Positions 1 through 31,948 of a stretch of DNA of 64,000 bases are shown here, piece after piece. The notes beneath the pieces were generated by a model. The model ran no database searches and was not told where the DNA came from. It saw nothing but the letters and a program-made list of their open reading frames with translations. Where the stretch lies: positions 48,192 through 112,191 of the forward strand of contig NMRA01000873.1 of assembly GCA_002633005.1 (NCBI GenBank). Reading direction: 5' to 3'. Numbering within the stretch: the stretch's first letter is position 1; the number at the start of each line of letters is the position of its first letter. The stretch comes from Phoronis australis (lineage: Eukaryota; Animalia; Phoronida). The position numbers and the translations under genes were made by a program.

Positions 1-3000
1 TGGAAAGTGCTTTAAAGCAACTCTACTTCAACCACAAATCGTTTTACTAGTATGATATCGATTTTTAAATCGATTAAAATTGATTTAGAATTTCAGTTCT
101 GGAAAATAAATCTCAATTGTTTTATTCCAGATAGACCTTAATTATTTTGTATTTGTGACCTCTTTATTTGACTTTTTGCTCATGTTGTTCTTAACACCAC
201 TTATCTCTGCTGTCCTTCTTTTTCTTTTCAGTTTCTCTTCATTCTCTTGTCAGCCAGAACAGAACTGTAACCCTTTGAGACTTGGTCGGCGAAAATTGAT
301 CGTTGAACCTCGATACCATTGTTCTAATAAATTACCCATAATTGTATTGTTTGATTTTTCTTATCTTTAACAGGCTTCTGCATTCATAAATAAATAAATA
401 AATACCCAAGTTGCATTTGAATTTTATTGCTCAATCTCTTCTTTTATTTTTGATTATGTCATGCTGTGCTGTATGTAACAATTGCAATATAGTGAAATAA
501 AGTCAATGTTTTACTTTATTGGTGGCCATTCTCTATCAATTCAAGTATTTTAAATTTCTTCAAATCAATTCAAAATGCTTTAACCAAAAATTTCAACATA
601 AATGTTGAGCTCAGTACTTTGTTTTGCAATAAAAAAAGTGGACAATATTTTGATGACCAAGGCGTGGACCAAAACTGTTAAGCACCCAGCGTGTTCCATT
701 TGTCTGCTGCGTTTTTCCTTTGGCCTAACAGGTGTCGGTTAGTACCTGGGACAAACAGATACATTGCATAAACAATCCTTGAGTTGTTTTTTGTTCCGTC
801 TGAAGAAAATTTAATTTCTAAAATATCTTCTGAAAATGAACAAAAAAAGTGCATTTAGTAAAATCTACAAGTTTTTAAGTGGTCTCAAAAAACAAACGGT
901 AAATGCATTAATTTTTGTCTCAGTTCTTCCACGCGTGTTTCTCCCGAGAAGTTAGTACCTAACGTGCAGACGAGCACTCCATGTTGGAACGCTAAGTTCC
1001 GCGTGGCTGCGCTGCACGCGAAAGAAGATGGCGGACGACCTTTGGAGCCTGACGAATCAAATTTTGAAAATCATCGCCTTCGTGCGATTCCGTGTTGCTG
1101 TCACCAGACTGATGTTCCTCCCCAACATCAATGTCGAAAATCGACTTTAAAAGTGATGGAAACTTGTCTCCTTTGTTTCTAACTTTTAACCCATTTTTTA
1201 AGAAAGGGGTGTACTGATTTTGTCTAACGTTGATAGTGCATAACTTTTGGTTTTTACAATACATTAATTGTGTTGAATGCATTCATATTAGGTGACTTCA
1301 TTGAGTTGAACAGAAAGTAAATAAATGTAACACAACAAAGTTTTGAAAATAAATAGAACAGTAAAACAGGACTCCCTAAAATCGAGCTGTTTTCGAAAAC
1401 TTTACGCCATTGTTGATCTGATTGGTTCATGCATTTACGGCGGGAAAATAATAGACCAAGTATCGTGCACGTGTGCACTGTAGCAACACTTTGTATCTTA
1501 TTCTTATTTGGCCAATCTGTTGATACAGTAAATTTCCTTATTTATGCCCATCCTGATTTGACTGCAACTTGAGCTTGTTGGGTTCTATCATATATTGGGT
1601 TGGCATTGGGACCCACATGATGCTCACTCGAATGGTCTTCATTTTACCAAGTATTTCAAATTGAGGTGAAGTAAATAAACAAAGTGGGTGATTATCATCA
1701 CCAGAATTTCATCATTAGTATCTTTTGCCGAGACTAGGGATTGTCAGATTTGTAAGGTAGAAGTGTTTTGCTGGATTTCCAGGTCTGTGGCGTTATTTAT
1801 ACCGGACCAAAATTAAAAAAAACAGACCTTTGTTTGAATCAGGAGCTGCATGATACACATTTATTAGACGTGCGCAGGCATTGCACTGATCACTTGGAAC
1901 CATTTTTATGGTTTATTAATATATAGTTAAACTAAGCTGATGAGCTTGAAACCTGATTCACGGCAATTTTTGGCAGTGGTATTTTCTGAAAAATGCTCGT
2001 AAGTTGACAACAAAGTTTGATAGCAATGCACTGCAGTTTTGTAGAAACTCTGTTCACAGGTTCCAGATGCGTCACAGAGCGTAACTTTGATGAATTCTAG
2101 CTTACGATTTCACCTGTTTCGGAGACCGGGTTTCAACCACTTTTGGGCTGTAATAAGCGCCCCCTTCCTGAAGAGGATTTTTCTAAGCACCCTGGCCGCT
2201 TATTAGGGCGCATACGGTAATATTTCAGAAGGGCAATACTTAGTATCCTTTATGCAAGGAACCCTTTTGTTACATTAGGAGTGGGATTGGTTCATTATGT
2301 ACCCTACAGGTGGCATAGGACTTTACAAAACTGGTTGAAGAATTTTGTTTTCGTCATAAACGTTCGTTTGAAAGGCTTAAGTTTGGAAATGTTAGGACTT
2401 AAGGAGGAAATTTAAAAAAACATATGTCCGCTTACAAAAAATTTAACATTGAAGAATAAAAACAACCTTTACATCCCTCTGGTGTTCCTGTTCCATGTTT
2501 TCAAAGAAGTTGGTTGCATTTTCATAGACTGCAGTCGAGAGAATTTGTGCGGCAGTATATTCGACATGAAATGAGTGTGTAACCTGCAGTTGAATTGCGT
2601 GATAGATTTTGACTGGTCCGGGTGGTTATTTTTAAAGTATTAATGTAATCTTTATTTATGTTAAAGGTTTTACCAGCGTTCTATTTATTTGTACACGAAT
2701 GTGAATTTGTTGAAATCGCTGATACAAATCCTGGCCAAATGTGCGCATTCTGCTGAGATCAACCTCTGATCAGGGCCAGCGAAGAGTAATTTGGTTAATT
2801 CGCTCACTAGGCTATGGCTGAACTTCCTCATAAGGACAAGAGTTTACGAGTCACTACCTTTGGAAGAAATTTAGCGGATAATTTTCGTCAAAAAGTTTAC
2901 CAGATAGTTTTCATCAAAACGGAGAAAACAAAAATGGATTTGTGAAGACAGGATTAAGTAGTAGAGTCTCTTAAAAACATTCATCTTCGAAGTGCCTTGA

Positions 3001-3751
3001 TTGAACAAATGTATAAAATCTTCTTGCCATTCACGTTGACACAAGAAGTAAGGTTTTCTTCCCACAGCCGATTATGGGGTCTTCGGATGGTATGGAAGCC
3101 AATTCCTTTGCATTTCGCGTGTGTGGCCGAACAACCGGCCACACAGTAGCCGATCATGATTAGCAGACGACGTACTTGCCGGAAATTGCACCAGAAAATT
3201 TAGCCAGGTGTCGCCAGTGAATAATGACGTAAGGGCTCGTGCGTAAGCTCACAGATTTCATCCACTGAAAATATACGGAGTTGGCGGTCTATGTACTATA
3301 GTCTATGGTGAAACATATGCCGCCAATCGTTAGTGTCATGAAGCATTTGAGATATTAAAGGCGAAGGCAACCTGTTTTCATGTCAATTTTTAGCAAAAAT
3401 AAGGTTCGTTAGTTATCCCAGACATATTTTACAATTAATTGTAATTTTTCGTAATTTGATTAATTACTCGTCTTCTCCTCCGGAAGTGACGTTTTGGGAG
3501 GCAAGAATTTCGCGCCAATTTAGCTCTGTGTTGAGTTTAGTGTGAGGATCTGTACTAGGGCTGTTTTTCTAAAATTGTCGTCACCACTTCCCATCGACGA
3601 GTTTTCTACGACAAACTAGTTTGTTAGAGAACCCAATATTACGTTCGATTTAGGGATTCTTTACTTTGTGTTAATCTGAAAATGACTGGAATCGGCGATC
3701 CATATCACAGTGACAGTAGTGACGTGAGTGAGTAACGGAGACATTGTTCAT

Positions 3752-5366
3752 ATAGACCCTATTTATGCGGCGGACATTAAAATCCAAAGCGAGGCTCACT
3801 GCGATAAACAAAGCAAAAGTAGACATTGCGTGAGTTAAATAGCCGGTCTTTCGAGTCCAACCTGGATATTAAATTTTAATGATGTGTCGACAATTAACCA
3901 CAAAGACGTAGAAAATTACATTAGAGAACGCCAAAGAGTTGTCTGACGAAAGGATTTAATTTTTTCGGAAAACTAGGTTCGAAACATGAAAAGTAAACTT
4001 GACCAAATTGCGGTGATCGTAGTGTTAGGATTAGGTATTATGCTGAATGAAGGGTTACGTTATTTCTTGTAAATTGTTGATCAAAATACTTTCTACGCGG
4101 ACCAGGTCATCTGCTTGTATTGTTGACGAGTTGAAGACATATTCGACAGTGGTGGATTAGTCACATCTGGTTTAATTTGTAAATCAAGAATATTAACATC
4201 AAGCATAGCCTGATCCTATGCACTCACTGGGACTAACAGTTGATTTGTCATTGATCTGAAAGAATAATTGATGTTATTAAGTATATTCTTTATTAAAATA
4301 AAAAACCAGGCTCGTAATTGGAAATAAAAATTATTTGACCATCAATTCTGCTTTCTTAGTTGTAATAATTCTTACATCTATTTCATGTCTTCGATTTCAA
4401 ATATCAATCTGGACCGAGTTGAATTTTAAAATTAAAACACCTAATTCGTTCGTCCAAAACATAACGTCGTTTTAGAACTCAATTTCAGTTAAGTGGACAA
4501 TGCAATCATAGTTATCATGTTTCTGCAGGAGCCTCGTTCATCCGAGGGGAAAGGTGCCAGTGCCTACTGAGAGGCGATTTTTTCGCCTAGTGAGGGTGGG
4601 AACAATCTACCTCCCGATCACCATCAGTAGCACCCCCACCCTGTTGCAAGCTCTCTTAGCCTCTGTCTCAATTTAAAGTAGCCTTTTGTGCTCTCAAAAA
4701 TTGTCACCTGTGTGGTTACAGGTGATGTGAACTCGGAAAGATTTTTCATTAGGGGAATTTGTATGCCTCGTGGGGGAATTTCGCGTGATATTTCAATATT
4801 TTTGAGAGGGGAATAGGGCCGATATTGGGCCCCAAATTTGAGGGATTGAGGACCCTGTCCTTTTTGGAAAAAAACGGTAAACGGGGTTCATTCAGCGCCT
4901 ATGCGTTGTTTATTCACCCCCCAAGACCCCCTGGTGGCGCACGTGGGTTAGTCAGCAATTCGCACCCGAACTCAAAAATGGGATCTGATACAATTTTAGA
5001 GGGGCCATGCCCCCCCCCCCTAAATCCGTAGTCGTGAAAACACATCCTGTCTGGCCCATTCTCCGGTCGTTACTATGATGCTTGACAACTGACCGAGATG
5101 CGACAAAATATGATCTAACTTATCGAAAACATTTATAAATTTTACACGGACACATTTTGCTTCGTCGCGGCGTATGGCAACGACCCAACGCTTCCGAATC
5201 TCAACGTCTTTAGAGATTGTAAAGCAGACAGTTGCGTGTCCGTATTTTTTCTAGCCGTTCGCTGAACAACACGGACTGAAACACAGAACTATGCCGATAA
5301 GCTGACAGAGCTATCGTAGCGAGCCTCGTTTTGGAACGCGCCTCGTGTCGGCATGAATAGTCTATA
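3752..5366. mobile_element. Non-autonomous TIR element nested inside the Kolobok-like element (superfamily uncertain)
   Basis: Left end tatagaccctatttatgc...tccaaagcgaggctcactgcgata. The right end reverse-complements to tatagactattcatgc...ttccaaaacgaggctcgctacgata. No coding capacity recognised. Confidence 0.55.
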
Positions 5367-5369
5367 GCA

Positions 5370-6221
5370 GTGGTGGCAAGGAATTTTTTCACGGACAGTC
5401 ACTCAGTCAGTGAGTGGGTATACTTTGTATGTTTGAGCCCGAGTATGATGAGGCAGAGTACGCACAGGCATAACTGTCCCACTTGCCCCAGTGTCCCGCA
5501 ACACACTCCCACTGGATGTGGACATGAGTACCCAAACTGCTTACATCCCACAGTGTGACTCCCTCGCCACACACCTGGCACTTTCTAAATATCTCCAATA
5601 CTTTAGACAAGTCCACAATAAACTTCTCAAAGTTTGGCTCACCGATCTGTTCGTTGGACGACGAACTGTCCTCTTCACTGGGTGTCGAACTGGGCCTGTA
5701 GGCCATTCACTCCCACAACTCAGCATCGCTGCCGCAGGGCTGCTTACAGGCTCTGTGTTAGAGACAACAGCATGGGGCGAATCACAGCTAGTTCCCAGAA
5801 TTGCACGCTCTGTACCTTCGGAGGCAAGGGTGACAGTTGATGAAGTGCCTCCAGTCACTGTCATGGCCATACCTCGCGAGGCTTCTCGCTTCAAAAACGC
5901 ACTTCTCGGGGAAGGGGAGCACTGCCGGGAATCAACAGCTACGGTATCGCACCGTTCTTCAGGCGTTGTTTCGCAGAGACCTTCATAAATTCAGCGTACA
6001 TATCCCTCTCGTAATCTGACAGCAGAAAATGCTTACCAAACACTCGGTAACCCTCCACTGCTTTGAACGTTGCGTTGACTGGTAGCGCTGCGTTATTCAC
6101 ACGAACGGGCCAAGTACGGCGAAGTGTGACATCCTTTGGAAAGCGATGCAAAGCCTAGTATTCCCAAAGCGCGTGTGAGACGATAATGAGTACATCCCGG
6201 CACGCAGCAACAGTGTGGCAT
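5370..6221 (-). pseudogene. Disrupted THAP-domain transposase N-terminus (THAP plus CxxC...C-x-x-GH zinc-finger region), truncated before the DDE domain
   Basis: ATG at 6221 gives MPHCCCVPGC, then a frameshift into LHRFPKD..RRTW...RVFGKHF..DY...RLKNGAIP* (THAP signature with the third Cys replaced by F and a premature stop). Further downstream FIVDLSKVLEIFRKCQVCGE...WECVAGHWGKWDS. Confidence 0.8.
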
Positions 6222-7438
6222 GTTGTCTGACTCGTAAACAAAAGCAAACGACGACCGAACTTATCACAACAGAGGTAGAACAATGACTGACTCCACAGCT
6301 CTCACAGTCACACTATATGAAAAGAAATTGGCACGAAATTCTTGCCTCCCAAAACGTCACTTCCGGAGTAGAGCACGAGTAATTAATTAAATCAAGAAAA
6401 GCTGTAATTAAGTGAAAAATATTTCTAGGATAACCAACGAACCTTATTTTTACTAAAAATAAAATGAAAAAGGTTGCCTTTGCCTTTAACTAACGCCATC
6501 AATAAAAGGGGTTATGACACCATCAAAGAAGGAAAGAGGAGAGACTAAGCAGAAAAGGCACCACCAGCATTACTGATTTACGAGAAAAGAAAAGACAAAT
6601 GTACAAGTTAATTTATCATGGTGTCTTATGTCATCGATTGATGGTATATTAATTTTATAAAAGTAAATACTTCTATTCCTAGACAACTGACCTTGACTGG
6701 ACCACACAAAGCAAAAATTATTACATCAATTTTCAACCCTGAACAGTCCAACTGACATTTTTCAGCTATTGGCAGACTCCAAATACACAAAAGAGCAGCA
6801 CCGTCAGAAGACATGCAATCTGTAGAGATCGTTTCAGTAGAATTTCAAGTGGTAAGTAGTTTAATTTATCTCAGACACGAGTTAACAGGTAGCATAAACT
6901 ACTCAAAATCAACTCCCATCTAACGGAGCAGACGATCGCCTACGTCGTGACACTTTCAGGATTCTAGATAAGAGGAGGCGTATCCCACAAATCAATGATT
7001 TGGGATCAATTTTTGATATGCCAAACAGGTCAATCTAGATTAATGATCACTATGTGAGTACCTTTCAGCTTCTGCTATATTAGTTAGTAGCCAAAATGAC
7101 AAAGTAAGCTATCCGAAGTTTCAGGTTTACACCGATTAGAGGTCAAGCGAATGCAATAAAGGGCAACAGAAAAGAAAAAGTCATGATGCAGGAAGTAAAG
7201 TGAACGCCAGATACAGTGGTATGAAGACGAACTGCGCGTTAACTCAAAAAATTAAGTAGACTCGCGTGATTTTGAGATCACGACATATGCAGCGACAGCA
7301 ATAAAAAATTAGAGCCAGTTTACCATCTTCGTAGTTAGGCAATGTTATTCACAGTACAATTTCGTGTTTCGGGAGCATTATCGGTTTAAATTACAGTCGA
7401 GCTGCTTCACTTAAACTGACAACTGGCATCTAACTCAA

Positions 7439-9340
7439 ATGGGAAACACCCTTCGTGGATATTTCTGTACGCAACGAGAGTCCAGTGAATCTATGTGTGA
7501 AGACCTAGACGGTGAAGATGGCAACAGGAATCGTCTCGAAAACAATCTTATCAAGGCACTCCAGAAAGACAATAACTCTGAATTGGAATCGAGTTTAGAG
7601 AAGTATCTTGAAGGCATTCAATTATCTGGAGACAAACTGGCAATGAATCATATCCTCGTGGAACGAGTGAGAACTATTGTTGAGTCAACCAGTGGGATGC
7701 TTGAATGTCAATATGAACTCAAGGCAGCACTAAAATATCGTAGCTACAATACCGTCGTGGATGCGCTTCGAAAGTATCTAAAGTTCACGTCAAAAGTGTT
7801 GCAAACACAACTAGACCAACGGCTAATTAGAGATGCAAAGCAATTTATCAAGGAGGAACGCCAAGGTGTATCAAGGGGAAGCAGTTTGTCCGGAGTCTCA
7901 CAGAAGGACTTTCGGACAATTAAGGGCTCGGTTGCAAGCACACCTGGCTTAAGTGAAGCTGCCACCAAGAGACGTCGGACTAGTGGCGTGTCTACAGCGA
8001 GTGAAAATCTGGACAAAGATAAGCCTGCTAAATTCAAATCCATAAGTCAAGATAAAGAGAAACTTTATGAAGCATTGCACCAGGACGACATATCACTTAT
8101 GAAACAAGAGTTAAATCGGTACTCCATGAATCCAGATCCGGACTGGAAATTCGTGAACAAGGCTAAGCATATTATAAGTACCAAGGCAGAATACAGGCAA
8201 CACGTAGTAGAAAAAAACAGGAAACTCTTGCAACAACTTGTCAATGCCACGTATAACATGAACCTCCAAAAGATTTCGTCAGCTCTTAAGGACTACGAAA
8301 GATACTGCGAGCAGCACAGTCCAGTCATCTCTCTTGACCGAGGAGTAGTGATACAGGCGAAAGTAATCATTAGTCAGCTCGAATCAGAAGTGGAAGCGGT
8401 CAAAAGAGAACACGAAGCATTCCGTAACAGATTGACCCGAGCAAGTCAGTTGGGCAATCCTGGAGAGGTAGAGTATGCATTGGAAAAGTACGAACTCTTC
8501 GCGAAGTACCGAGGCTACGTTATTGACGATAAGCTCGTCGAGAAAGCCAAAAAGAGCTTACTGCTTTCTTCGATGGAGAAGAACCGAGACGAGTTGAAAA
8601 GAAAGCTGGTTGAAGCAAACGAAAGTGGGGACACAGAGTTAATGAAGGATGCTCTGAGCAAATATAGGAGTTTTCTCGAGGAAAGTGGTACTGGAGATGA
8701 TCCTCTCGTAGAGCAAATAGAGACAAAACTTACGACGTCGTATTGTCAAACCCTCCTTGATGAAGCTATCCACAGTAACGATGTAGAAAAATTAAAATGG
8801 GCAATAGATCATGTGAAAACGTTTCAGGTGGTTGACGAAGTTAAGGAAAAATGTAAGAAGGCCAGTGTGATCATGGAAAAAATAGAACATGGGATAAAAA
8901 CGAAATCTGCCATTATGAACTTGGACCGAGCACAATTGCACGAAATCCGGGACTACTCGAATCCACCGCCGGTGGTTCATGAGTTAATGGTCGCCATTTT
9001 GCTTTTATTAGGGTATTCCGAGAGCGAAACGCGCGACTGGGCAACATGTCAAAAACTGTGTTGTAGTTACAGGACGCCAACATATCAAGGACTCATTAAG
9101 AGTATCCAAGATTTTGAACTGGTTCACCTGAACCCGGCCATCGCAAAGCGTGCTCAGCAGATTCTAGAAGTATTGACGCCTGAATGCGTCAGAGCGACAA
9201 GTCACGCTGCATCTCTGCTCTATGCATGGGCAGTTGCTACTTGTGAGCGATGTCTTGAAAATGCGGATTGCCCAACGCCGGCAACAGGTACGCGACAGAA
9301 CTCGATCTTGGCCTCTATGGGCAAACAAGCAAGACAATAG
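7439..9340 (+). CDS. 633-aa single-coding-exon protein: predicted N-myristoylation, 7 helical repeats, C-terminal dynein heavy-chain stalk MTBD-like domain
   Basis: Uninterrupted 1.9-kb ORF with good start context (tcaaATGG) and a splice acceptor ttacag at ~7391-7396 just upstream. Starts MGNTLRGYFC. Repeats of the form LxxAxxxxxxxxLxxALxxY...DxxLVxxAK. C-terminal LDRAQLHEIRDYSNPPPVVHELMVAILLLLG...DW...LIKSIQDF...PECVRATSHAASLLYAWA matches the dynein MTBD pattern. Confidence 0.85.
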   Translation: MGNTLRGYFCTQRESSESMCEDLDGEDGNRNRLENNLIKALQKDNNSELESSLEKYLEGIQLSGDKLAMNHILVERVRTIVESTSGMLECQYELKAALKYRSYNTVVDALRKYLKFTSKVLQTQLDQRLIRDAKQFIKEERQGVSRGSSLSGVSQKDFRTIKGSVASTPGLSEAATKRRRTSGVSTASENLDKDKPAKFKSISQDKEKLYEALHQDDISLMKQELNRYSMNPDPDWKFVNKAKHIISTKAEYRQHVVEKNRKLLQQLVNATYNMNLQKISSALKDYERYCEQHSPVISLDRGVVIQAKVIISQLESEVEAVKREHEAFRNRLTRASQLGNPGEVEYALEKYELFAKYRGYVIDDKLVEKAKKSLLLSSMEKNRDELKRKLVEANESGDTELMKDALSKYRSFLEESGTGDDPLVEQIETKLTTSYCQTLLDEAIHSNDVEKLKWAIDHVKTFQVVDEVKEKCKKASVIMEKIEHGIKTKSAIMNLDRAQLHEIRDYSNPPPVVHELMVAILLLLGYSESETRDWATCQKLCCSYRTPTYQGLIKSIQDFELVHLNPAIAKRAQQILEVLTPECVRATSHAASLLYAWAVATCERCLENADCPTPATGTRQNSILASMGKQARQ

Positions 9341-10029
9341 CACTGGTTATAACATCTCAGACAGCTATGGCAGTCTCATGTATGAAAAGGAAAACAACAA
9401 ACGCCACACGAAACCGCTACTGAGTTAATGCATGTAACGTTCACATGGCAGAAAGACATTGCTTAAATCTTGCCACTGACGTTTTGATCGTGTGACTTTA
9501 ATTGACGGGCATGGCGATTGTAACTCTGAACCACGGAATTAAATTTTAATTCGAACAGTCGGTTTATCATTTTTTGATCTAGACAAGTGCGCAAACATCT
9601 GTTCTATGCCACCGACAGAAATTGCATGTGCAGCCCCATAGCTGTTAGCTGATCGCGATAGCCACACAGCTTTCTCTTCTTCGCATCGCCCTCCTGGGAG
9701 CACGCATGTATACATAATGGGCAGTCTAACTGGCATTGTTAAGATTCAAGACTGTTCCATTGTTTTTCGACACCACCGCGTTTCCAATACAGCCTTGACG
9801 ACTCTTTAACCTACTAAGGCAGGCACATACATAACCTGTCCATAGGGCCGGAGTTTAGTGGTTTCGTTTCTGTCTCAAAATCAATGTCAGCAGTTCTCTC
9901 GCCAATCCTTTAAATTTCATGACTATTCTTCGCGGAACTTTGTAGATACTAAGACCAGCAAAAAATCCTAAAACTGTCACCAGTGGGCATTGTAGTTTTC
10001 GAATAGGTTTGAAATCAATGTCGTCCATG

Positions 10030-10830
10030 GGCAGATTTAATAATACCCAGGCGATCCAACTCTATATAAACCTTTTAAGGTTTAAAGTTTTGGTAAATTA
10101 AGCCCCAGCTTTTTACCACTGTTTATGACCAGATAAGATCATACTTCATACTTCACACCTCCCCAACTCCAACAATAGACCAGCCTTGGGTAAATGAGGG
10201 ACTCAGAAGCTCAAGGCTTTTGATGTTGTCACATGTCGCTTTCCTGGGTCTCTGGAGTTGAAATGCGAAGATTCCTATGGAAGTATGACCAAAAGATATG
10301 TAACTCAAGAAATTTATTAATGACAGTTTAGCTAAGTACATTTTCCATTGACTGAAAAATCTCATGTTTGGAAATCTCATGGTGACTAGAAATCTTCCCT
10401 TGATTATGCTGTAATTAATTCCAAGCAATTTTCCCTAAACATAATCCTAATTTCAGAATACAAGCCTCTTGAATCACCAAGAACACAGAGACAAAAGTAA
10501 CAAATAAAATACTACTCAGCCAGGGTTTAAGGCCAGAGATTCCATATCTGAACTCAGACAGATATCAACTAGACAGATATCAACTAACAAATGTTGATAT
10601 CCATAGTAAATGAACTCCCAATCACTTATCTAATTTAACTGTCTTTGATTAGAAATACTGACTTCTTGTTGACTCCTTCATGTAGAAATTGAGCTGAGCA
10701 CCTTGAGTTTCAAGAAGAATGGTACAGTCAATCCTTGAATGTCCCAGAGTTGTATAGTTCATCAGCACATATGAGGATATGTCACTCACCATGGTAAAAT
10801 CTCCACCAGTTTAGGAGAACAAATTAAGCT
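10030..10830 (-). mobile_element. Highly decayed L1/Tx1-like LINE reverse-transcriptase relic
   Basis: Minus-strand frames give broken fragments in RT order (QG-like motif, KLLGIN, W...KLS, GL.LP...SW). Many stops and frameshifts. Confidence 0.35.
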
Positions 10831-11185
10831 GATGCAAGTGAAATTTTACTATCATTTCCATACAACACATGCAGCGCCAAACTAAAAGTTTTTTTCCGTG
10901 TTCAAATTTTTCCCAAAAACAACCATCAAAGTTTTGAAAACTGTGGGTATTCACAACAAAGTTAGAAGCTTGTGAAAGATGAAAAATGACATTTTGGCAA
11001 TTATTCAAGTCCGAAATTGGTGAAATTTTATCGATATGGTGTTCCAAGTCCTGCTAAGCATATCTATGCAAGGAAATAGTTTAGTTTTCTCCAAAGTCTG
11101 GCAGCGGGGACAGAACTTTGGGAAAAGTCACACAACAGCGTAATATTTCAATGGTGCAGACGTCTTGCAGAAGAAAACTCCTACA

Positions 11186-11458
11186 GGGCTACGTCTCATG
11201 AATAAGTGACTCAAGACATAAGACAAAAATTTTGTCTGCGCTCCCTGTTCACAATTGGCCACGTAATTATTATTAGTCTGTTACTATTAGCACACAACAG
11301 ATTAGAAATTATTTTTACTAATTATATCCATAACTGACAATTATACATTCTCAGATACTTTTACTAAAATGAAATTTGAATTCACTATTTTCAAAAATAA
11401 TTGTGTGGAGCGTAAGACCAAATTCGTGACTTAAGTCATTTTACATGAAACACATCCC
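11186..11458. mobile_element. MITE with imperfect TIRs (PIF/Harbinger-like ends)
   Basis: gggctacgtctcatgaataagtgactcaag...gcgctcc..acaatt versus aattgtgtggagcgtaag...gacttaagtcattttacatgaaacacatccc. Confidence 0.45.
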
Positions 11459-11552
11459 AAAGCCTCAAACTAAAACTTTAAGGCACTGTCTGGCTCAAGA
11501 CTGAATAGAGTATCTTCTAGCTTGGCACAGCAGTTAAGGAATCGTAAGGGCA

Positions 11553-14500
11553 CTATTTCCTGGGCTGCAGTTTCTTGCGATCTTCCCTCACTCTCCATTT
11601 CATCAGTTCCATGCACGCCTGGGCATCCTCATGTGAGTCGTGACCACCAACTGGAAGTAACACAGCACAACACTGTCATTTCTAGTGGGTAAACGTGCTA
11701 TGGTGGACAAGCCTCAAGACACATTTTATGTTTTTACTGTGCATTTTGTGAATCAATCATGTGGAGGTGGAATGGTTCCAGCAGAAACAATTCAAAGCAG
11801 TAATAACTAGTAATAACAGCTTTCACACATCACGCCAGTGGCGGATTTAGAGGGGGGCCAAGGGGGCCATGGCCCCCCATAAAATTTTCCCAGATTGCAT
11901 TTGGCAGTTCGGGGGTGGGAATGTCTGACGGGCTAATACTCTGCCTTGCCCCCCCAACTTAAAATCCTGGATCCACCACTGTACACCTTCACTTTTAAGG
12001 TTACATAGGACCTTATAAACAAGAGTGTGCACTTAGTAAAATATCTGGAAAACTATAAATTTTAACTCTGTAAAAGTACTCAAAAAGCCCGTAGAATTTG
12101 ATTTTTGACTTTTTACCAATCTGTTATTAATTAATTGGGTCACATGACCATGTCATTTTATTAAAATTTAACAAAACAGAAAGATACAGTCACAGCACAA
12201 CAACTGTATCAATAAAATGGTCGACATATCAAAAACTAAGTTACAGTTTTCAAAAATATTTTATTTTCGTTATATTCAAATCATGAAAACCATGAAAGTC
12301 ATACTTTACGATAACCCCTCATACAAAAGTGGAATTTTTTTTAAATTCCTAAAATAAACATCATTTTTCAAACCACTGAGTAAAGCATAGTATCTGAAAC
12401 TTTCACGTGAAATTGATAGGCCAATTCTAAGATATGATATTCCAAAGTCAGTCAAATTTGGTAATTTTTAGTCCCAGACTACCTCAAGACAGCTCATCAC
12501 CTTTAGGTTGGAACAATTGAAGACCAGTTGTGTGGCTGTAAGGCTATGCTCACACGTTACTGAAGCTATAAAGCAGAGGTGTGCACGCTGACTTAAAAGG
12601 GAGGGTATAACCGGTGGTTTCTGGACTTGAGAAAATCTGACAGTTCATATCTGCTGGAGACCATGCTTGGTGCATAAAATGATCAAGTAACAGTAAACTG
12701 TAATGTCTTTCCAGGTCCAGAAATCTCGTCTAATTTGACATCATTTGAATTGCTCAACAATGTCAACGTGGAGCGTATTATTTTACTATTACGTTATAAT
12801 ATTATTCTTGTTATCCAGCACACAGCTTTATGTATCCAGGCCTAGATGACATGAAAACTTTATTCTAGGGTGTTACTATTCATTGCAATAAATCACTTAC
12901 CATCATCTTGAATGATTTTCTTGAGGTATTCGGCCATGAGAGTTTTGAGAGCTCGTTTGTAGGGGGCGCCGAGTCGATGAGGAAACACGACTGAGGTATC
13001 AACAACGGTGCTGTGAATCATCTGGGAACACAAAAAAGATACCTGACGGAGGTGAATCTTTGGAAGTTTTGGGGGTTTATTGAGTACTCGTGCCAAAACT
13101 TCTAATGGCAAAGACACTATGGTTAATGTTACATTACAAACTACTACTGATCTCTCAGATCAGAGGATGTTTCATTTTGTGCATATTTTACGTAAATGTT
13201 TCAGAAATAAAACTGTGCGGGGTTTTAACTCAATAAGTCTCCAGAGGTTTTCATTGATTTCTTAATCAGTCAAGGTCGCTACTGCAAGAATTAGTGACTT
13301 AAAACAAGTCAAGACAATTGTTTGCTGACAATAATTTATAAAAACTTGACAAACTGACTTAAAATTTGTAACTTGCAGCAAAGAAAAACTATCCAAAAAG
13401 CTATTTAATTTACTTGCACAAATCTATTTTTATTACCTTTAAAGACAGAAGATCGCTTTCTAAACTATGGCCAATCAGAATGTTCTTATCACTGAACATG
13501 CTCAATAGCACCGCTTGAACGTCTCGCAGTTTCGTTGTAACATTTTTAAAATCCTTTTCAGTCAGCCCACTGAATCTGAAAGTAAAGACCACTGCTTACG
13601 TCGACTTTATTGATGTAGTTTGGTATCAGACTCTCTTGTACGCAAACTAAGTTAAACACATGGCATTGTTGCATATTAACAATTTTAATGGACACTCTCG
13701 CAATACATTTGTCAATTCTCTAAAAAGCAGCACCTACAATGGCGCAGATCCCCTAGAGATAAAATAAATAAATAAAATAGAATTATGAAAATGAGGGTTA
13801 CATGGCTCTTTGGATGATCAACGAATACATCCAAAGTTTGAAAGAGTGTCCACTGAAATTATACAGTTAGACGAACTTACCTTAAGTGAAGGATGACTGT
13901 AATTTTATGTATCCCCAGAATTCCCCCAGAGTGCTAACATGAGATACGGACATGCGCAAAGCGAACCATTCTTTAAAGCTCTTCTGTGATCAAGAGAGTG
14001 CTAACAGGGTGGGATGTGGAGGGCATGTTAGCACTCTGGGGGAATTCTGGGGATACATAAAATTACAGTCATCCTTCACTTAAGGTAAGTTCGTCTAACT
14101 GTATAATTTNCCTTTTCAGTCAGCCCACTGAATCTGAAAGTAAAGACCACTGCTTACATCGACTTTATTGATGTAGTTTGGTATCAGACTCTCTTGTACG
14201 CAAACTAAGTTAAACACATGGCATTGTTGCATATTAACAATTTTAATGGACACTCTCGCAATACATTTGTCAATTCTCTAAAAAGCAGCATCTACAATGG
14301 CGCAGATCCCCTAGAGATAAAATAAATAAAAATAGAATTATGAAAATGAGGGTTACATGGCTCTTTGGATGATCAACGAATACATCCAAAGTTTGAAAGA
14401 GTGTCCACTGAAATTGTAAACAGACAACAGTATTGTGTCTATAATCAATTCTGACTTCACTAAAAAGTTGTTAAACATGAACTAGTAACTCCATCTAGTG

Positions 14501-23500: not shown

Positions 23501-26500
23501 TCAAGGGTGGAAATGATGAGTTTATCGTGCTGTTTCCTCAACAAACTGCTGCCAATCTTATTGCCAGTGGGAGTAGCCTGGAAAGTAACACCACTCAAAA
23601 TCATTATGAGATACCGCATACGGCACAAACCAAAAGAAATCAAGACAAAACTAACGACAACTGGGTGCCAGTGGAGTTCCGTCGTTATAGTGCCCAAACA
23701 CCATGACCAGAAGTCTGCTTCGTGAAAAGTATCTAAAGGCAAAAATTTGGTCTCACGCTCCAAATAATTATTTCTGAAAAATAATCAAACCTCACTTGAG
23801 CAAAAGCGCAAATACTCTGAGAATATACACGTAACTGTTAGTTACTGAGATAATTTTTATAAGTTATCTCTAGATTGTGATGCGCTCCTACTTACTTGGC
23901 TAAACCTTTATTTAGTAATTCTGAAGAGGGAACATTAGACCGTATTTCGACCTTAAATCACTTTCATGACACGGACCCCAGGATCACGAGGGACTTCACA
24001 GGAATAGTGGCCAGGTAGAAATGCTGCTCCATAATTGGGAATTTGTCATAGGGACAAGTCATTACCAGTTGTTTTCGCTACAAGTGAAATACGCCACCCT
24101 AATGAGGATACAGCCTTTTGCCAGGCCACATTCGGAGTGAACCATTGTCGCGATTTGTAATCAATAAAAGTCCCACGTGTACTAGACCACTCCTCAGTCT
24201 TGGACATATTAGGAAAACACTTTCATCAATTAGCTTTTAGCTGGTTTTCGGTACGCCAGTTATTTTGAAGTTGAGTCAGGCAAACAAGTACTTCCACAAA
24301 AATTTGTCCACTCAGTTGTCAATTTCGTGGATCCGACGTTGAATCTTTGAACTCATAAAATTAATTCTGGTATTTTCTACATTTAGTATGAACTCAGGGT
24401 ATAGTCTTTGAAATATGTATCATTATCATGATTGACACAGGCAAGACCAAAATCCAAGTTCGCACCTGACTGACCCCAATACCGAAGGTACAAGTTAAAA
24501 TGTGAACTTAAAATCTTAAATTACGAAAAACAGAACTTCAACTTACAAATCAGAGCTCTATGGATTTAACTCTCAAGTTATGACATTCAATTCTCTGAAT
24601 CAAGCCTCTAACTGTGAATCAAGGCTTGATTACTGAATAGTGATAACCAGACAAAATGATCAGTGAAGAACAAACTTTAAATTATGATTGTACAACACAC
24701 TTCCTGAGCTCAAAACAAGAGAGACTAATATGACGAGGCGTAAAAGTATTTGAATAGCAGTGTTGATTTTGCATGTAGTCTAAGATTAAATAAATGAAAT
24801 TCTGAAATAAGCCATGTTAACACTTCTAATTTTTCATGAAGGCTTGCAGTACCTCCAAGGCAGAGCACACAGGTGATATTTTTCGCAATTTAAAAAGCTC
24901 CGTCGTGTTTGTTTTATATTGGACAGAAGTTGCAGATTTTGGATTCTGAAAAAGGTTCGCAATGTCACAATGGCCACCCACCTTGTTTGAAACTGACTGT
25001 TGCTGCATGGAAATCATGCGGTTATGCATGACTTGAGCGGGGGTAAGTGTTGAGAAAGGCCGGGATGCTATTCTCCTAGCTGTTCCAGTTGACTGGAAGA
25101 AATACAACAAGAGAAACAAGGTGAGCAAAAGTATTCAACGCATATTCTTTGAGTTGTAGAAAATTCATTTGTTAAAGGGCCAGCGAACCTGTGACTTCTG
25201 TTCAGGGACACGTCCAGGATTTGAAAAGTGGGGTTCCAAATTCACAAGACTGACACTCGCTATGTGCTACGAATATGTACGAGGCAATCTGACATAACAA
25301 GACAGGAAGGTATTGCCCCAAAAACATGGCTGCCAGCATTTGCCAATAGTCAATGTGACATTTGTGGTAAAGATAGACGGTAATAGTCTGTGATGTTGAT
25401 TTTCAGGTATGAATTTTCATCAAACTCCGAAAACTAATTTCAGGTTTCAGTAAAATTTAGAAGTGTCAAAATTCTTCCCTTAGGCATGGTTTGTACCCAA
25501 GTTGTCTTGAAACAGGCCGTCTTCTTTATTTCTTGGCCACAATGTCCAAGTCATCATTTTTCAGAGCTAGCCATCCCAATGACAGTTGCAGTATGAGTAT
25601 CTGCTTCTGACCAAAACCAACATTTGATTCAGACCAGCTAGCATTATAAATTGGTCTCGTGCTGTTCGTAAGCTTGAGAACTGACGGCTTGTTACAGCTA
25701 TAGAGCAGGCTGTTTAAGTCGCTTGTCATGGCAAGTAAGGTTGCCAATACAGGGCTATAGTCGACGGGAATTTCAGGCGATTTCATGCAACCAATATCAA
25801 TTCAAAGAATAAGAATACGATGAAATGGAAAGTGCAAGTACTTCAGTAAAGAAAGTTGATGTTTTTAACACCAGAATATGGTTGATAGGCATAACTTTCT
25901 GCCTCTGATAAGGCTAAAATCTAACACTGTGCTAAACACATGTCAAAACAAAGAACTTTGCAGGAAGACTTACACTGCTGAGGGCTTGATGGGCAGTGCG
26001 TTTCTTCAGTTCAACACCAGGTAGCGCTATCTCCTTCGCTTTAGAATCAGCATCATCCAGTTTAAACTACATGGGGAACAGGTAGTAAGCATCAACAAAT
26101 GAAATTTTGTTGTAAACAACACTTGCATATCTAAGAGGGATGTTGATATTTAATTTGAAACTGATAACAGAACATCTGGATTGGGTCAAGATGCTAAATT
26201 TTGTTGTTTTCTAACTAAAGCAGCTATCACAAAACAAAAAATACACCATGAATCTAACATAAATTAGAAAGTTGACCTATCTGTAAAATACAACGTCCTC
26301 TGTGCCTTTCAACTTTATGAGAACTTGCAATGCACCTTCCATCAAAGATTTTTTAAATATTCAGCCTATGTAGAAATTAAGTTTGATTTGATTGTACCAT
26401 GATCGCAAACCATTACCTTAACACCAGGAATTAAAAAAATCTTACCTTTTTTAGTGGTGGGTCTGTTCCTTGTCTATTCAAATTTGACTCTTTTCTACTC

Positions 26501-29500
26501 TCATTGAAGATCTGTAAACACTCTTCATATGTATCACCCTCTGTGGTATCACCGTCGAGCAATGGGTGACTATCTTCAGTCCCATCATCATCGTCACTAT
26601 CACTGAGGTTGATGACGCTGACTGGCGATGCACTCCGCTTTCTGTGCCTCAATTGTGGCTTCCGCTTTGGTTTCGAACTTTCATCTCCCGAAGACACTAG
26701 CACGATGGAATCCGAGTCACTGTCTTCGCCAAACAAGGAGTTAAATACCAAAGAATCCTTTCGCTCGGAAAACGGTAGCGATCCACTCTTCTCTTTGTGT
26801 TCGTGATAAACACTAGAGGGGGAGCTGCGCATCAGCTTGAGGCGAGGGTGCATAGGTGTTCGTAGTAAATCAGCATTTTCGGACTTGATAGATTCGCTGA
26901 AAATATTTTCATTGGCCAGACTGTTATGATTTCCTGAACAGCGTTCCTTGAAACTCACTAATTTGCTACGCCTCACTCTCTCCGATGTTGGCATTTTTTC
27001 GGGATTGGATGAACTTTCTGATGAAAAATCAACATCGTTGTTCTTGCACGAGCTCAATTTTTCACAATAGGAGGATGCTGTTTTCACAGGGACACCACAA
27101 TGCACATCCGGCAGTTCGTCACTACTGTCACTATTGTCCATGCGGTTCACAACCTCTACATAACCCATATTTCCACTCCGAGCTTCACTTTCATTCCTCC
27201 TTACTTCTGGCATTGACCTCTTTTCCGCTGACTTCGACTCACTGGACCGTTGCCGTCCAGGCGGCGAACTGGAACCAGACTTTTTCTCCTTTTTGATCGA
27301 TTGCACTTTGTCATTTACTGTTTTTGCGTTTGGCTGATTTGCACTTTTTGTTGACTTGACCTCCACAGACTTGACGTCTGCATTGCACCTGCCATGTGTT
27401 TTGGATACGCTGCTTCCAGTGTGTTCATTAGAATTCAACTCATTTCTTGACCTACTCTTTGAAGATGTTGAGCTATGCTTCTTGTTTTTGGTTGATTCTA
27501 CATCATCCTTTGAAATCGAATCATTTTTCATTAGCTTAACATCTGAAGACCTTGAGCTGGAACTATGTTTTTTCTCTCGTCTGTGTGAAGCTACTTTGTC
27601 GACTGTCTTTGACTTTTCTAATTCTTTGGAATATAATTCATTTTCTGTTAACTTACTCACTGAATCTTTCGCACCGGAACTATGTTTTTTAGTTCTTAAC
27701 AATTCCACTTTGTCCACAGCTTTTGAATTTTTTTCCAATTCTTTGGAATATGACTTATTTTTTGTTGATGTGTTCTGAGAAGATGTCGAACTGCAACTAT
27801 CGTGTTTCTCTCTTCTTGACAATTCTTTTTTATCCAAAGCCTTTGACGTTTCCAATTCTTTTGAATGCAACTTATTTTTTGTCAACTTGTCCTCTGAACA
27901 ATTTGAACTGGAGCTGTGTCTATGTTCTTTTTTCGGTAACTCTCTATCACTTTTCCAGGAAGACTTACGATCTGAATTCAACTTGGTCCCTGCAGAAGTT
28001 GAATGAGAATGATGGTCAGGCTTTTTTTTCAGTAACTCCTTGTCAGTTTTGGAGGAAGAGTTGTGATTTGAACGCTTTTTGTCCTTCTCACTGTTAGCCT
28101 TTATTCCACTTGAAACTTTGTGCTCAGTTATGAATGTAGACTTCACTGACTCAGAATTAGGGGGATGCTTGGCGTGTTTTTCATCAGTGGGGGGTACAGA
28201 CTTTGCCTTGGAGGAGTGACTGCTCGGAGAATGAGTTTTTGTGCCTGTTTTCTCACCAGACAAAGCCAATGGCTTTGATTTACTATTAGAACAGTCTGGA
28301 GATTTTTTAAGGTTATTTTCATGGGACTTAGAATCAGATTTGCTTCCGGATGCATTGTTGCTACAGACACTTTTTGAAGATTTTTCCTTGGTTGACATTG
28401 ACTTCCATTGTCCAAATGCTGTTGAATCTGGACTAGACAGAATTTTGTCAAGTGAAGGAGATTCCTCCAGAAGAGTATGTGAATTTTTCACCTCACTCAA
28501 GTTTTTTACTGGCGCACTATTAGCCAAAGACTCCTCAACAACAGGCATTGTACAGTCATTTAATTCAGTTTGAGAAGGAATATTGATTTGCTTTTCTTTG
28601 CTACTGCACTCTGTTACAAGTCCCTTGGAAACATCATCATTACAAGACTCTGTAGACTGAGCTTGGTCATCATCAGAATCACTAAACTTGGCTTCTGTCG
28701 TCATGGCAATAAGTTTCCACATGGCATCGTCCCGAGGCTCCTTTTTGTCCTTCCCGTGATCCGCTCGAGTTGTCACTTCATTCTTTTCACTAAAGCTCGT
28801 CTGAGGGTTATACTCATCATGGATTTTGTTGTCCACCAAACTCTCAGGCTTTTCAGGACTGAGTTGGCTAATCGGCGTCGGTCTATACACACAAGACGAC
28901 ACTGCCCCCGTTTGGTTGTCAGGGGTGTCATTTCCGGATATATCTGACAATGGTTTAACTTTGGAAAGCTCAGAAATTTTAGTGGGAATATACACAGGTT
29001 GACTTGCTTGGCCTTTCTCAACAACACCGACTTCTTTGGTCTTAGTTTCAACTGCCTTCACGATGGGAGACGGCGTGTACAAAGGTTTTTCAGTTGCTTT
29101 GGCCAGCGGTGAACCCTTATTCAGCTCTGCTTCAAGTTTACCAGAGTTGAGCATTTCTTGACCCTGTTTAGATACATCTGAACATGTAGCTGCGTCAGCA
29201 AAACCGCCAGTACTATTAAACTTTTCCTTTGATCGATCAATTTTTGTCGGGATGTATACAGGTGTAGCGCAAGCTATAGGACTTTTGAGGACTACCCTTT
29301 GTGGACTGTAGGCTTCAATGGCAACTGGTTTTTTCCTTTCGGAGATCCTACTGGGCCGATACGGGCACGAGGCGTCAATCTGCCTCTCTCCATGTGAACG
29401 GTGCCCATATTTGTGCGGACGAGTAGACCCCCTACCGCCAACATCTCGATGTACCTGAAATGAGAAAGACAGACTTTTTACAGCGACAGACAGAATGCAA

Positions 29501-31948
29501 AATATCGTCAACAAACAAGCTTTTATTCCAAGTCAGTCCCCACAAATTACTTGAAGGTTACATATTTTTCAGATCTTTGGAGACTGACCTTTAAGAAAAT
29601 GTAATGTCTTGGAGTCAGTCTTGGACACAACTTGAACTGTCAAAATGGAAAATGAAGCAAAGTGCTTGATGTTTCTTGAGCAACAATTTGATGAGTAATA
29701 TAGATGTCCAATAAAGCACCAAACTAAAAATTAAGTGCCTAAAAAGACTTCAATGCGTTCACTTATAGAATGACTTCCAAGTTATTTGTAATCAACTTCA
29801 TGCTACTTTAATTTGTAATTTTTCACACACAGATATTTTATGTAATGTCTGATATCAGTTTAAAGCAAAGTTTTTGTTTAAGCAGACAATTGCATGTTGA
29901 ACAATAAGCTATCACAAATGACAATCCTTGATACCAAACAGCAAAAATTAATTTTAGCATCAAGCATTGTTAAAAGGTATTTCAGCCAACAGATGAGTGC
30001 TTTCTTGACAAGAGTCGAATTTCGCTCCGTTTTGCCTAATAGAAATGAAACTCAAATTAGGTCTTTTACTGTCATAAAATTGGTCTCATAATATTGTTTA
30101 CCTTGAAAGGATTCTGTTTCCCTCACCACAGGCAATGGGTACATGTGCCCATTTTTGAATTTTTGAATTTTTGAATTTGCAATTTAGGTGGTTGGACAAC
30201 CCCACGAAGTTTTGAGTCCTTTTCTTGAGCCAATGATGGTTTTGAGGTTCTTGTTGGTAATAGAATCCTATCATGGTAAGGAATCCCATGAGATCAATTT
30301 TATGAGAGTAAAAGAACAAATTTGATTTTTTGCATTTTTTGATCTACTAAACAGGGTGAAACCCAGATTTTGAAGAAGATATTAGCATTCTCAACTGCTT
30401 TTTTCATTGTCTGTTGGAATTCTATGAGATCGGTTTTTGTTTTAAGTCAACTATACAGGGTAAAATGCAGATTTGAGTAGTGCAATGAAACCAAACTGCC
30501 CTTTGTGTTTTTTCATACTTTTTACTATAATTTTGCAACACCACAAGTATACTAATATGCTGCAAGTAGCCAAAACTAATGTTTTGTGGTTACCTGTTTT
30601 ATTGCACGGCCCACTGCATTCAACAGAGAATGACTTCCTGGGGCTGGCTTGGTTCCTCTATTACTGCTGCTGTATGACTGGATGGGCTTCACACTGACAG
30701 AACGGGGGTCTAAAAAGAAATAGAAATACACACATAGAGTTTACACACTCTCCTTACTTCCACACATGAACCAAAGCTCCAAGATACTAATGTAAGCTCA
30801 TAGGCGGATTTAGGGGGGGCCCAGGGGGGCCCGGCCCCCCCCCCCTTGGCTGGCGCAAAAAAACTAAAACAGCAAGAGCGTAAGGAAATGTTGAGTTTAT
30901 TAATTAACCCGGTAGTTAAAATTATACGGCTGAAACAAGATTTAAATGTGTGATATCTCAGGCGACCGGCAGTGGCGCTGGGCACTACGACTCCGTTTCT
31001 GTCGTCTGCTCCACGGTGCAATGAAGAAAATAACTTCATTTTTAAAGAAACTGGAATCTGAGTAATGGTGAAAAAACAGAAGCTGCTGGTAAGATGTCAA
31101 TTTTAATCGAAGCTTTAGTGAATCACTCAGAAACTCATAATTCTCTCTTTGACAACCTTAACTTAAGACGATTTCCAAAGCAATCGCGTCATTAATGCCA
31201 ACACAAAAAATGCATTTGGTCTTTTGGGCAATTGAAGACTATTTTAAATACAACAAATTTGTTACGAACTGATTGCACAAAATATAAAACATGCAATAAG
31301 CATTACAAAAAGGAGTTTTCAAGTGCAAATGCTGTGAACCATAAATAAGTAGGTCTCATAGTCTCAAATTAGGAGCTGGTTGACTTTTTTTCTTTTTTTT
31401 TTGCCTTTTTTGAAAAATACTTCGGGAATCAAGGAAAATGCTCGATTTTTAGAGGAAAAAACAGAAAATTTTCCTGGGCGAGAGGGGGGCACTCGACCTC
31501 CCCCCATTCGGTGCTATGCACATCTACAATCGTGCTTGGAGCAAATGCTTACAGACAAAATGTTGGGCCCCCGCCTTGTGATATCCTAGATCTGCCACTG
31601 GCACCACGTTTCTGATCAAGCAGCACACAGTGTCGCAGTATAATAAATGCCATGGCATAAAACATGAATGCAGTTTTTGCCAAGAAATTGACACTCCGAC
31701 TTCTTGTTCACACAACACACATACATACACACATCCAACACTTAGCCTCTCGGAGTTCACCAAGTCGGACAACTCTCAAATCAAATTTTTGACTTTTGTC
31801 ACAACGAAGTCACGTTTTCTGTTCAGTACTCACCCTCTCGCTTCACTTCAGGTTTCGCGTGTCGGAAATGGCAGTATGGCCGTTCGCATAAGCCATTGGC
31901 ATAATATGGACATATTGAGCCCTTAAGGAAACCAGTTGAGGTGAACAT
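11553..31948 (-). CDS. REXO1: RNA exonuclease 1 homolog (DEDDh 3'-5' exonuclease), 17 coding exons, ~1618 aa
   Basis: Exons in minus-strand order, all GT-AG and phase-consistent: 31834-31948, 30594-30709, 26446-29454, 25974-26066, 24982-25092, 23464-23577, 22680-22814, 21484-21607, 19688-19810, 19188-19328, 17908-18021, 17503-17576, 15852-15965, 15227-15342, 13437-13575, 12901-13021, 11553-11650. N-terminus [28 protein letters not shown]. Middle domain [28 protein letters not shown]. Cys/His domain CVRC..C.HHWG..YTCC..GC. ExoI AMDCEM, Exo[10 protein letters not shown], Exo[11 protein letters not shown]. Confidence 0.95.
11836..11981. mobile_element. Short GC-rich MITE (CAGTGGCGGAT...ATCCACCACTG; hAT-like ends) in the last REXO1 intron
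   Basis: Terminal inverted repeats cagtggcggat / atccaccactg with subterminal G and C runs. Related ends at 30799-31600 and ~5000-5030. No clear TSD. Confidence 0.6.
11997..12486. mobile_element. Possible non-autonomous TTAA-type (Kolobok-like) element
   Basis: ttaaggttacataggacc at left versus gtcccagactacctcaa at right (imperfect inverted match). Confidence 0.3.
13856..14109. mobile_element. 254-bp DIRS-like (tyrosine-recombinase retroelement) terminal hairpin or mini-element
   Basis: Perfect 86-bp inverted repeat 13856-13941 / 14024-14109 (aaattatacagttagacgaacttacc... / ...ggtaagttcgtctaactgtataattt). The CTTACC/GGTAAG termini with a self-complementary extension resemble DIRS1 ICR/right-ITR ends. 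Confidence 0.55.
14111..14415. repeat. Near-identical second copy of ~13554-13860, probably the alternative haplotype joined at an N
   Basis: Starts right after the n at 14110. Differs from the first copy by 2 substitutions and one AAAT unit, and lacks the hairpin insertion. Confidence 0.8.
16872..16936. repeat. (GAT)n microsatellite
   Basis: tgatgatgacgacaacgatgatgatgataatgatgatg... in a REXO1 intron. Confidence 0.9.
21215..21392 (+). mobile_element. tRNA-derived SINE family copy (related copies at ~1850-1965 and ~50605-50820 in reverse orientation)
   Basis: B-box-like gggatcaaatccc followed by the body cccttgactcaggtctctagctactcagctcgg...ttcaggtg...tgcacatctgg, shared with the two reverse copies. 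Confidence 0.5.
22613..22672. repeat. (CAA/CAG)n microsatellite next to a REXO1 splice donor
   Basis: aacaacaacagcaacaacaacaactacagcaacaacaac... Confidence 0.9.
23940..24350 (-). mobile_element. Possible decayed LINE ORF1 fragment
   Basis: Minus strand reads [10 protein letters not shown], resembling the NxxIxGxPE motif of LINE ORF1, followed by broken sequence. Weak evidence. Confidence 0.25.
30799..31600. mobile_element. ~800-bp non-autonomous TIR element (hAT-like ends) in REXO1 intron 1
   Basis: cataggcggatttaggggggg... at left; ...gggcccccgcc...ctagatctgccactg at right. Same end family as 11836-11981. Confidence 0.55.

Follow-up and report, generated by a model that had tools for sequence, protein, structure and literature searches.

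The microtubule-binding domain (MTBD) of dynein heavy chains is generally regarded as inseparable from the motor, its affinity being set by sliding of the stalk that carries it. In the available text of PMC7042235, the yeast domain is described as contacting tubulin through six salt-bridging residues, and that of Dictyostelium as using different positions of helix 3. The accessible part of PMC6629372 attributes MTBD affinity to stalk registry, and reports poor microtubule decoration by DNAH7 on its own stalk as well as a case of an MTBD binding poorly on the wrong stalk. The hillarin-like and KY-like proteins, which carry Ig-like_KY (PF23265) and Transglut_core (PF01841) domains, include studied members reported at two sites: in the portions of text available, leech hillarin is placed at the axon hillock and said to act with septins (PMC3081291), and that of Drosophila is described as concentrated in the cleavage furrow (PMC3718969).

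Subscription papers aside, the literature, as far as its available texts extend, holds no report of an MTBD-like domain in hillarin or KY proteins or of motor-less dynein MTBDs, and the repeat-plus-MTBD module of hillarin-related invertebrate proteins is apparently undescribed. In automatic structure-family annotation, such proteins presumably carry an MTBD-superfamily label already. Here, we describe a protein of 633 aa (P0001), encoded in the 64-kb stretch of DNA that was analysed as a whole (the window), which is a genuine MTBD homologue without a motor and without a long stalk. Its module proves to be the C-terminal end of hillarin/KY-like proteins, a family identity absent from the original prediction. 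The features of the locus are as follows.

7412..7414 (+): in-frame TAA, the nearest upstream stop before the ATG, read from the sequence.
7439..9340 (+): uninterrupted open reading frame of 633 aa (translation; depth of strand-specific RNA reads 8-34 in both X1 and X2, 0-0.7 in X3).
7439..7468 (+): N-terminus with Gly2 and Cys10, a putative myristoyl/palmitoyl site of non-consensus type (Arg6), from translation and a pattern test.
7529..7861 (+): helical repeats 1-2, aa 31-141 (leave-one-out scores 13.3 and 7.0 bits; model pLDDT about 55-77).
7871..8044 (+): disordered basic linker rich in Ser/Thr/Lys/Arg, aa 145-202 (pLDDT <50; composition).
8045..8890 (+): helical repeats 3-7, aa 203-484 (repeat alignment, relatives' repeat profile, models).
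8897..9268 (+): dynein-type MTBD, aa 487-610, of which 589-610 form a short CC2-like helix (sequence, Pfam, profile and structure searches).
9275..9307 (+): tail motif of the PA...RQ..I type, aa 613-623, present in 11/150 relatives, 4 of them KY-type (model helix 618-632).
9341..9679 (+): likely 3' UTR with ATTAAA at 9538 (stranded depth 7-8, then 0 in the following bin).

The reading frame is the second longest among the stop-to-stop frames of the window and contains no internal stop, against 42 and 43 stops in the two other plus-strand frames across the same span. Its product begins MGNTLRGYFC, and the dynein-like peptide quoted in the original prediction is present from nt 8909 (aa 491). 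The absence of a motor claimed there also holds, three patterns finding no P-loop or Walker-B-like motif in the frame. Three raw RNA runs (X1-X3), of each of which about 18-19% was read, and one contig set, all under the same species label, were mapped to region 3000-13000. Across six bins spanning 7342-9345, depth was 8-34 in X1, 12-21 in X2 and 0-0.7 in X3, falling to 0-2.2 in the bins upstream (6674-7341) and, on the other side, to 7-8 at 9346-9679 and 0 beyond 9680. Over the gene, the first mates of X1 and X2 reads always mapped to the minus strand, an orientation that corresponds to plus-strand RNA in most stranded libraries. Among the 15 joints listed, out of 58, none has an end inside the gene; a joint of the contig set, linking repeats at 5024 and 11931, spans over it. 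The gene is thus real and expressed in a sample-dependent manner, strand-specific reads covering it in two of the three raw-read runs, which answers the transcription check attached to the prediction.

Three other features of the window may be recorded. At 3386-6460, 136-nt inverted repeats (88%) lie 2.8 kb apart, with multi-copy read cover on both strands; this unit, whose end lies about 980 nt before the P0001 ATG, is likely a non-autonomous DNA transposon. Exons of a terminal-nucleotidyltransferase gene occupy 36533-59065 (+), with MTPAP-like central and NTP_transf_2 matches at 49056-49421 and a weaker match at 43138-43476, and we take this gene to be probably TUT4/7-like. A low-complexity Ser/Lys-rich exon of 1033 aa at 26431-29532 (-) has no Pfam match; its ends may resemble REXO1/elongin-A-binding protein.

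The closest sequence match of P0001 in the PDB is the yeast dynein MTBD (E 2.9e-6, aa 487-610), and 13 of the 14 PDB sequences matched at E<=1 are dynein MTBD-containing or dynein-sized chains; identity to dynein MTBDs is 22-29%. A whole-protein Pfam scan gave no MT match. The fragment at 8816-9283, by comparison, exceeds the cut-off of the Pfam MT model PF12777 (26.5 vs 24 bits), so that such proteins easily escape annotation. When a profile of 71 family sequences was searched against the PDB, the best match reached E 1e-12 and 54 sequences fell at E<=0.01, of which 52 are dynein heavy chains or stalks by name or size; the other two are a 4583-aa chain labelled as a radial-spoke protein and a designed helical maquette.

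The predicted structure agrees. A model of aa 380-615 built from 71 sequences has a pLDDT of 94.5, and Foldseek gave five matches at E<=0.001, each of them either a stalk/MTBD entry of dynein or an axonemal chain of dynein size. Structure alignment of the model gave Z 14.2 with a dynein stalk in the wide comparison (rmsd 3.9, 144 aligned) and Z 12.1 with the yeast MTBD (rmsd 2.7, 134 aligned). The MTBD homology first proposed from the peptide is therefore borne out by the PDB match, the Pfam fragment score, the family profile and the modelled fold. With the dynein domain (the middle of PF12777; PDB 6KJO, 6KJN, 6RZB, 3ERR, 5AYH), P0001 shares the six-helix fold, the helix-1 Glu plus Arg/Lys motif, the NPP turn and two conserved Trp; its alignment to yeast shows a 3-residue insertion and no apparent long H2-H3 flap. 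It differs from dynein in having no AAA ring, linker or tail, and in the replacement of the long sliding coiled coil. In the model, the last repeat helix (469-493) joins the domain at the place of CC1 and a 22-residue helix (589-610) leaves at that of CC2; these are the only stalk-like helices, and the protein ends at 633. Comparison of the model with the two affinity states was a tie (6KJO Z 12.1, 6KIO Z 11.4).

Upstream of the domain, seven segments of about 50-55 aa, chosen by eye, align with a mean pair score of 23.0, compared with 1.4 +/- 1.5 for 300 shuffles. Random dynein segments gave a mean of -0.2 and a maximum of 28.5, and register-shifted windows 16.3 +/- 3.9 (maximum 28.4), a range overlapping the observed value, probably since parts of the repeats remain inside the shifted windows. 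Repeats 5-7 match the pre-MTBD repeats of relatives at 5.6, 7.2 and 14.9 bits, the best of 200 shuffles reaching 3.6, while structure search against spectrin repeats gave Z of only 6.4-7.6. Sub-cut-off Pfam matches in this region (TPR_Slam, Phage_TAC_8, DUF4326 and others) were rejected. The full-length model is all-helical (pLDDT 76.5, pTM 0.50), with long helices continuing from one repeat into the next. Of the helical-repeat rod originally envisaged, the repeats stand, since their alignment beats shuffles and the model is all-helical; a pTM of 0.50 leaves a straight rod shape conjectural.

Word-based protein searches with the whole of P0001 and with aa 470-615 found no relatives. An exhaustive search returned 273 representatives at E<=0.001, the best 150 of which, those listed, are 21-40% identical, with none above about 40%. 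A metagenome scan found no relative among 124 pattern matches; in an atlas comparison, the C-terminal part matched mollusc-dominated clusters at 0.91 and 0.90, and the repeat part nothing above 0.80. Among the best 150 of the 273, a near-complete MTBD-like domain is present in 127, and in 92 of 115 single-copy relatives it lies <=60 residues from the C-terminus. KY Ig-like domains, usually together with a transglutaminase-like core, were detected by Pfam in 38 of the same 150, the others having VWA/CLCA, EGF or CARD domains or none known to Pfam. MT copies stand in tandem in about a dozen relatives, P0084 represents a fragment of a dynein stalk, and a P-loop motif occurs in a single member. 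Thirty clusters were looked up and an organism is named for 19 (10 molluscs, 5 annelids, 2 amphioxus, Cyanophora and a sand-fly dynein); one carries the name "hillarin-like". An end composed of helical repeats and an MTBD is thus common to hillarin/KY-like proteins and short transglutaminase-less forms of molluscs, annelids and amphioxus, in line with the earlier suggestion of an uncharacterised invertebrate family.

P0001 scores 112.9 bits against a profile of 117 family domains, 98.8 against one of 39 KY-type domains and 34.3 against a dynein profile, a comparison biased by the collection of the family set with P0001 itself and by dyneins that are nearly all outer-arm beta. In a tree of 79 rows (51 of 118 family rows, 17 dyneins and 11 tandem proteins, one copy each), P0001 and the family (50 module rows) lie on one side of a branch with SH-aLRT 96. 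A tree placing P0001 with dyneins was not rejected by the AU test on 122 columns (p 0.186). Shared repeats and the tail motif support family membership independently.

Relative to the hillarin-like/KY-like proteins of molluscs, annelids and amphioxus covered by the module comparison (for example XP_069137733.1, "hillarin-like", from Argopecten, and ESO03382.1 from Helobdella), P0001 has the same C-terminal module (E down to 8e-30) and a Gly2 start, with the tail motif in a subset. It lacks their transglutaminase-like core and KY Ig domain, by Pfam on the frame and tblastn in the window, and has seven repeats rather than about two, a single uninterrupted frame and a non-consensus acylation site. 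Closer in design are uncharacterised short transglutaminase-less proteins of Lottia (ESP05579.1, 347 aa), Pinctada (KAK3097041.1, 326 aa) and Ostrea (XP_048733175.2, 481 aa), which likewise combine a Gly2 and Cys N-terminus, helical repeats and a terminal MTBD-like domain and have neither motor nor Pfam enzyme domain. They differ in having two detected repeats and a consensus myristoylation site, and are about 25% identical to P0001.

Two further arrangements appeared among the relatives. Motor-less tandem-MT proteins include P0010, P0034, P0049, P0068, P0074 and P0125; one tandem-MT protein is from Cyanophora and has NPHP3-like TPRs, and one has a Hemingway/CFAP97 domain. In P0086, P0131, P0066, P0105, P0141 and P0031, the module follows regions of CLCA/VWA, EGF or CD20-like type, a placement that points either to the cytoplasmic tails of membrane proteins or to fused gene models.

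The lipid anchor presents a divided picture. Myristoylation was judged by a PROSITE-type pattern (Gly2 and a small residue at position 6); the available text of PMC7048800 yielded no rule for position 6. The pattern fits 18 of 38 KY-type relatives, that is, all those that start with MG, 7 of 46 other relatives of at least 300 aa and none of 54 short, probably mostly partial ones, or 25 of 138 non-tandem relatives once 12 tandem or dynein rows are left out. The seven transglutaminase-less proteins that fit it are 305-481 aa long and share the architecture originally predicted, three of them being the Lottia, Pinctada and Ostrea proteins above. Cys occurs within positions 3-10 in 16 of 28 MG-starting relatives. 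P0001 has Gly2, Asn3 and Cys10, the Cys thus falling at 10 rather than 3-5, and fails the pattern through Arg6. The proposed anchor is partly supported: judged from these N-terminal patterns, acylation of the family is likely, and that of P0001 uncertain.

Our preferred reading, to which we assign a probability of roughly 0.45, is that P0001 is a static membrane-to-microtubule tether with an ATP-independent grip and a probably lipid-anchored N-terminus. Its seven helical repeats would end in a dynein-type MTBD gripping the microtubule surface without ATP, and an N-terminal lipid anchor would make the protein a static spacer keeping microtubules near the membrane. Affinity would be fixed, given that a stub of about 22 residues, packed on a repeat, stands in for the sliding CC1/CC2 stalk; tubulin binding, acylation and a cortical site are the steps that we infer. 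The tether is favoured by the fold match, retained helix-1 contacts, R585, the family's myristoylation patterns and the localization of hillarin, and weakened by Arg6, altered H3 and H6 contacts, a net charge of -2, family acids at the R3201 position, the example of DNAH7 and the occurrence of the fold in non-dynein chains. Nothing supports the ciliary site implied by the ciliary membrane-to-axoneme link that was originally offered as an example.

The yeast helix-1 contacts K3117, E3122 and R3124, as given in the available text of PMC7042235, align with R497, E502 and R504 of P0001, so that all three are kept. Of the helix-3 contacts, R3152 corresponds to Ala535 and R3159 to Cys542, or to Arg545 with a gap, and the helix-6 contact R3201 corresponds to Ala586, with Arg585 one residue before; K539, R545 and R585 are basic neighbours of the altered positions. 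In the outer-arm dyneins sampled, the helix-6 basic residue lies at 585 in 66 of 112 and at 587 in 111 of 112, not at the yeast position. Of the 117 family domains, 115 retain E502 and 92 retain K/R504, and the core Trp and Pro are likewise conserved. Conservation of the E502 contact position extends over molluscs, annelids and amphioxus, and that of E502 and K/R504 argues for a retained tubulin interface. Since stalk registry sets affinity, and in view of the DNAH7 case, the affinity of P0001 on a fixed stub is unpredictable.

The main rival to the tether, which we regard as somewhat unlikely, is that P0001 keeps the MTBD fold and has lost useful tubulin binding, the domain instead capping a helical scaffold as a protein-interaction module. 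The lost or shifted H3 and H6 contacts speak for it, as does the net charge of -2 of the domain core, where family medians are +2 to +3 and only 18 of 117 domains are as low; at the R3201 position, 51 of 117 family domains have an acid (Asp/Glu), vs 0 of 17 dyneins. Reported partners of hillarin, in the accessible text of PMC3718969 and PMC3081291, are moreover septins. The fold also occurs outside any dynein, in three motor-less chains: 7JTK chain C 434-595, from Chlamydomonas radial spoke 1 (Z 11.3, rmsd 4.4, 155 aligned), 9FQR chain Xl 1180-1494, from the bovine sperm axoneme (Z 9.9, rmsd 3.6, 142 aligned), and 9YA2 chain L 1207-1457, from the Toxoplasma intraconoidal microtubule (Z 7.7, rmsd 3.2, 125 aligned). 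All are only 10-14% identical to the P0001 domain and absent from the PDB sequence-search matches, and Z values under 13 can reflect a helical arrangement that is common. The first two we take to be possibly RSP2 and EFCAB5, in part by size. The third is probably ICMAP2 by size, its identity being uncertain, as accession order points to ICMT-2 and the entry title to ICMT1. ICMAP2 is described, in the available portions of the respective papers, as having no recognisable domain (PMC10774369) and as binding the microtubule at 8-nm spacing (PMC12819142). The accessible texts of PMC11779644, PMC12819142 and PMC10774369 make no mention of a dynein-like fold for these chains; the radial-spoke structure papers may already name it. 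An MTBD-like fold in non-dynein chains of a radial-spoke structure implies that the fold need not bind tubulin. Against this scaffold reading, the non-dynein chains are 11-14% identical, compared with 22-29% between P0001 and dynein MTBDs, and all three helix-1 contacts are kept, with E502 nearly invariant in the family.

A microtubule-binding soluble adaptor with no lipid anchor, placed by partners of its repeats, would account for Arg6 and for those relatives whose module sits behind VWA/CLCA, EGF or CD20-like front ends; the Gly2 and nearby Cys, as found in the family, make it improbable. We consider it very improbable that a longer hillarin-like gene ends in this frame as its large final exon, with transglutaminase and Ig exons to the left of the window. 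The upstream DNA within the window is only 7.4 kb, there is low stranded depth upstream in X1 and X2 (0.4-2.2), and the joints listed are 15 of 58; these three points would suit such a gene. Yet 12 KY-type proteins matched only 8483-9334 of the 64 kb in tblastn, depth is already 19-24 in the bin holding the ATG, the in-frame stop at 7412 separates an acceptor at 7396 from that ATG, and the Gly2 start fits the family. That P0001 is a dynein heavy-chain fragment or pseudogene, as its MTBD homology and the AU result might suggest, is largely refuted by tblastn with 10 dynein heavy-chain pieces, which gave two window matches, both on the MTBD and none to AAA, by the 112.9 bits to the family profile vs 34.3 to the dynein profile, by the shared repeats and tail motif, and by an intact and transcribed 1.9-kb frame.

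Extended to the family, the tether reading would give invertebrates a large and as yet undescribed class of lipid-anchored microtubule tethers that work without ATP, derived from one exapted MTBD that was shuffled to positions behind front ends of transglutaminase-like, VWA/CLCA, CARD or purely helical-repeat type, a proposal that we advance tentatively and would not call probable. Were it true, repeat number would set the distance from membrane to microtubule, the domains, once bound, would take up the lattice site used by dynein, and the presence of hillarin-like proteins at the microtubule-rich cortex, for example at the axon hillock, would find its explanation in the module. A widespread animal family with its MTBD on a fixed helical repeat offers natural constructs for studying the function of the domain without its stalk, and family members might compete with dynein for its microtubule site. 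The molecular activity of hillarin-like proteins is unclear, and the finding raises the question of whether their C-termini bind microtubules.
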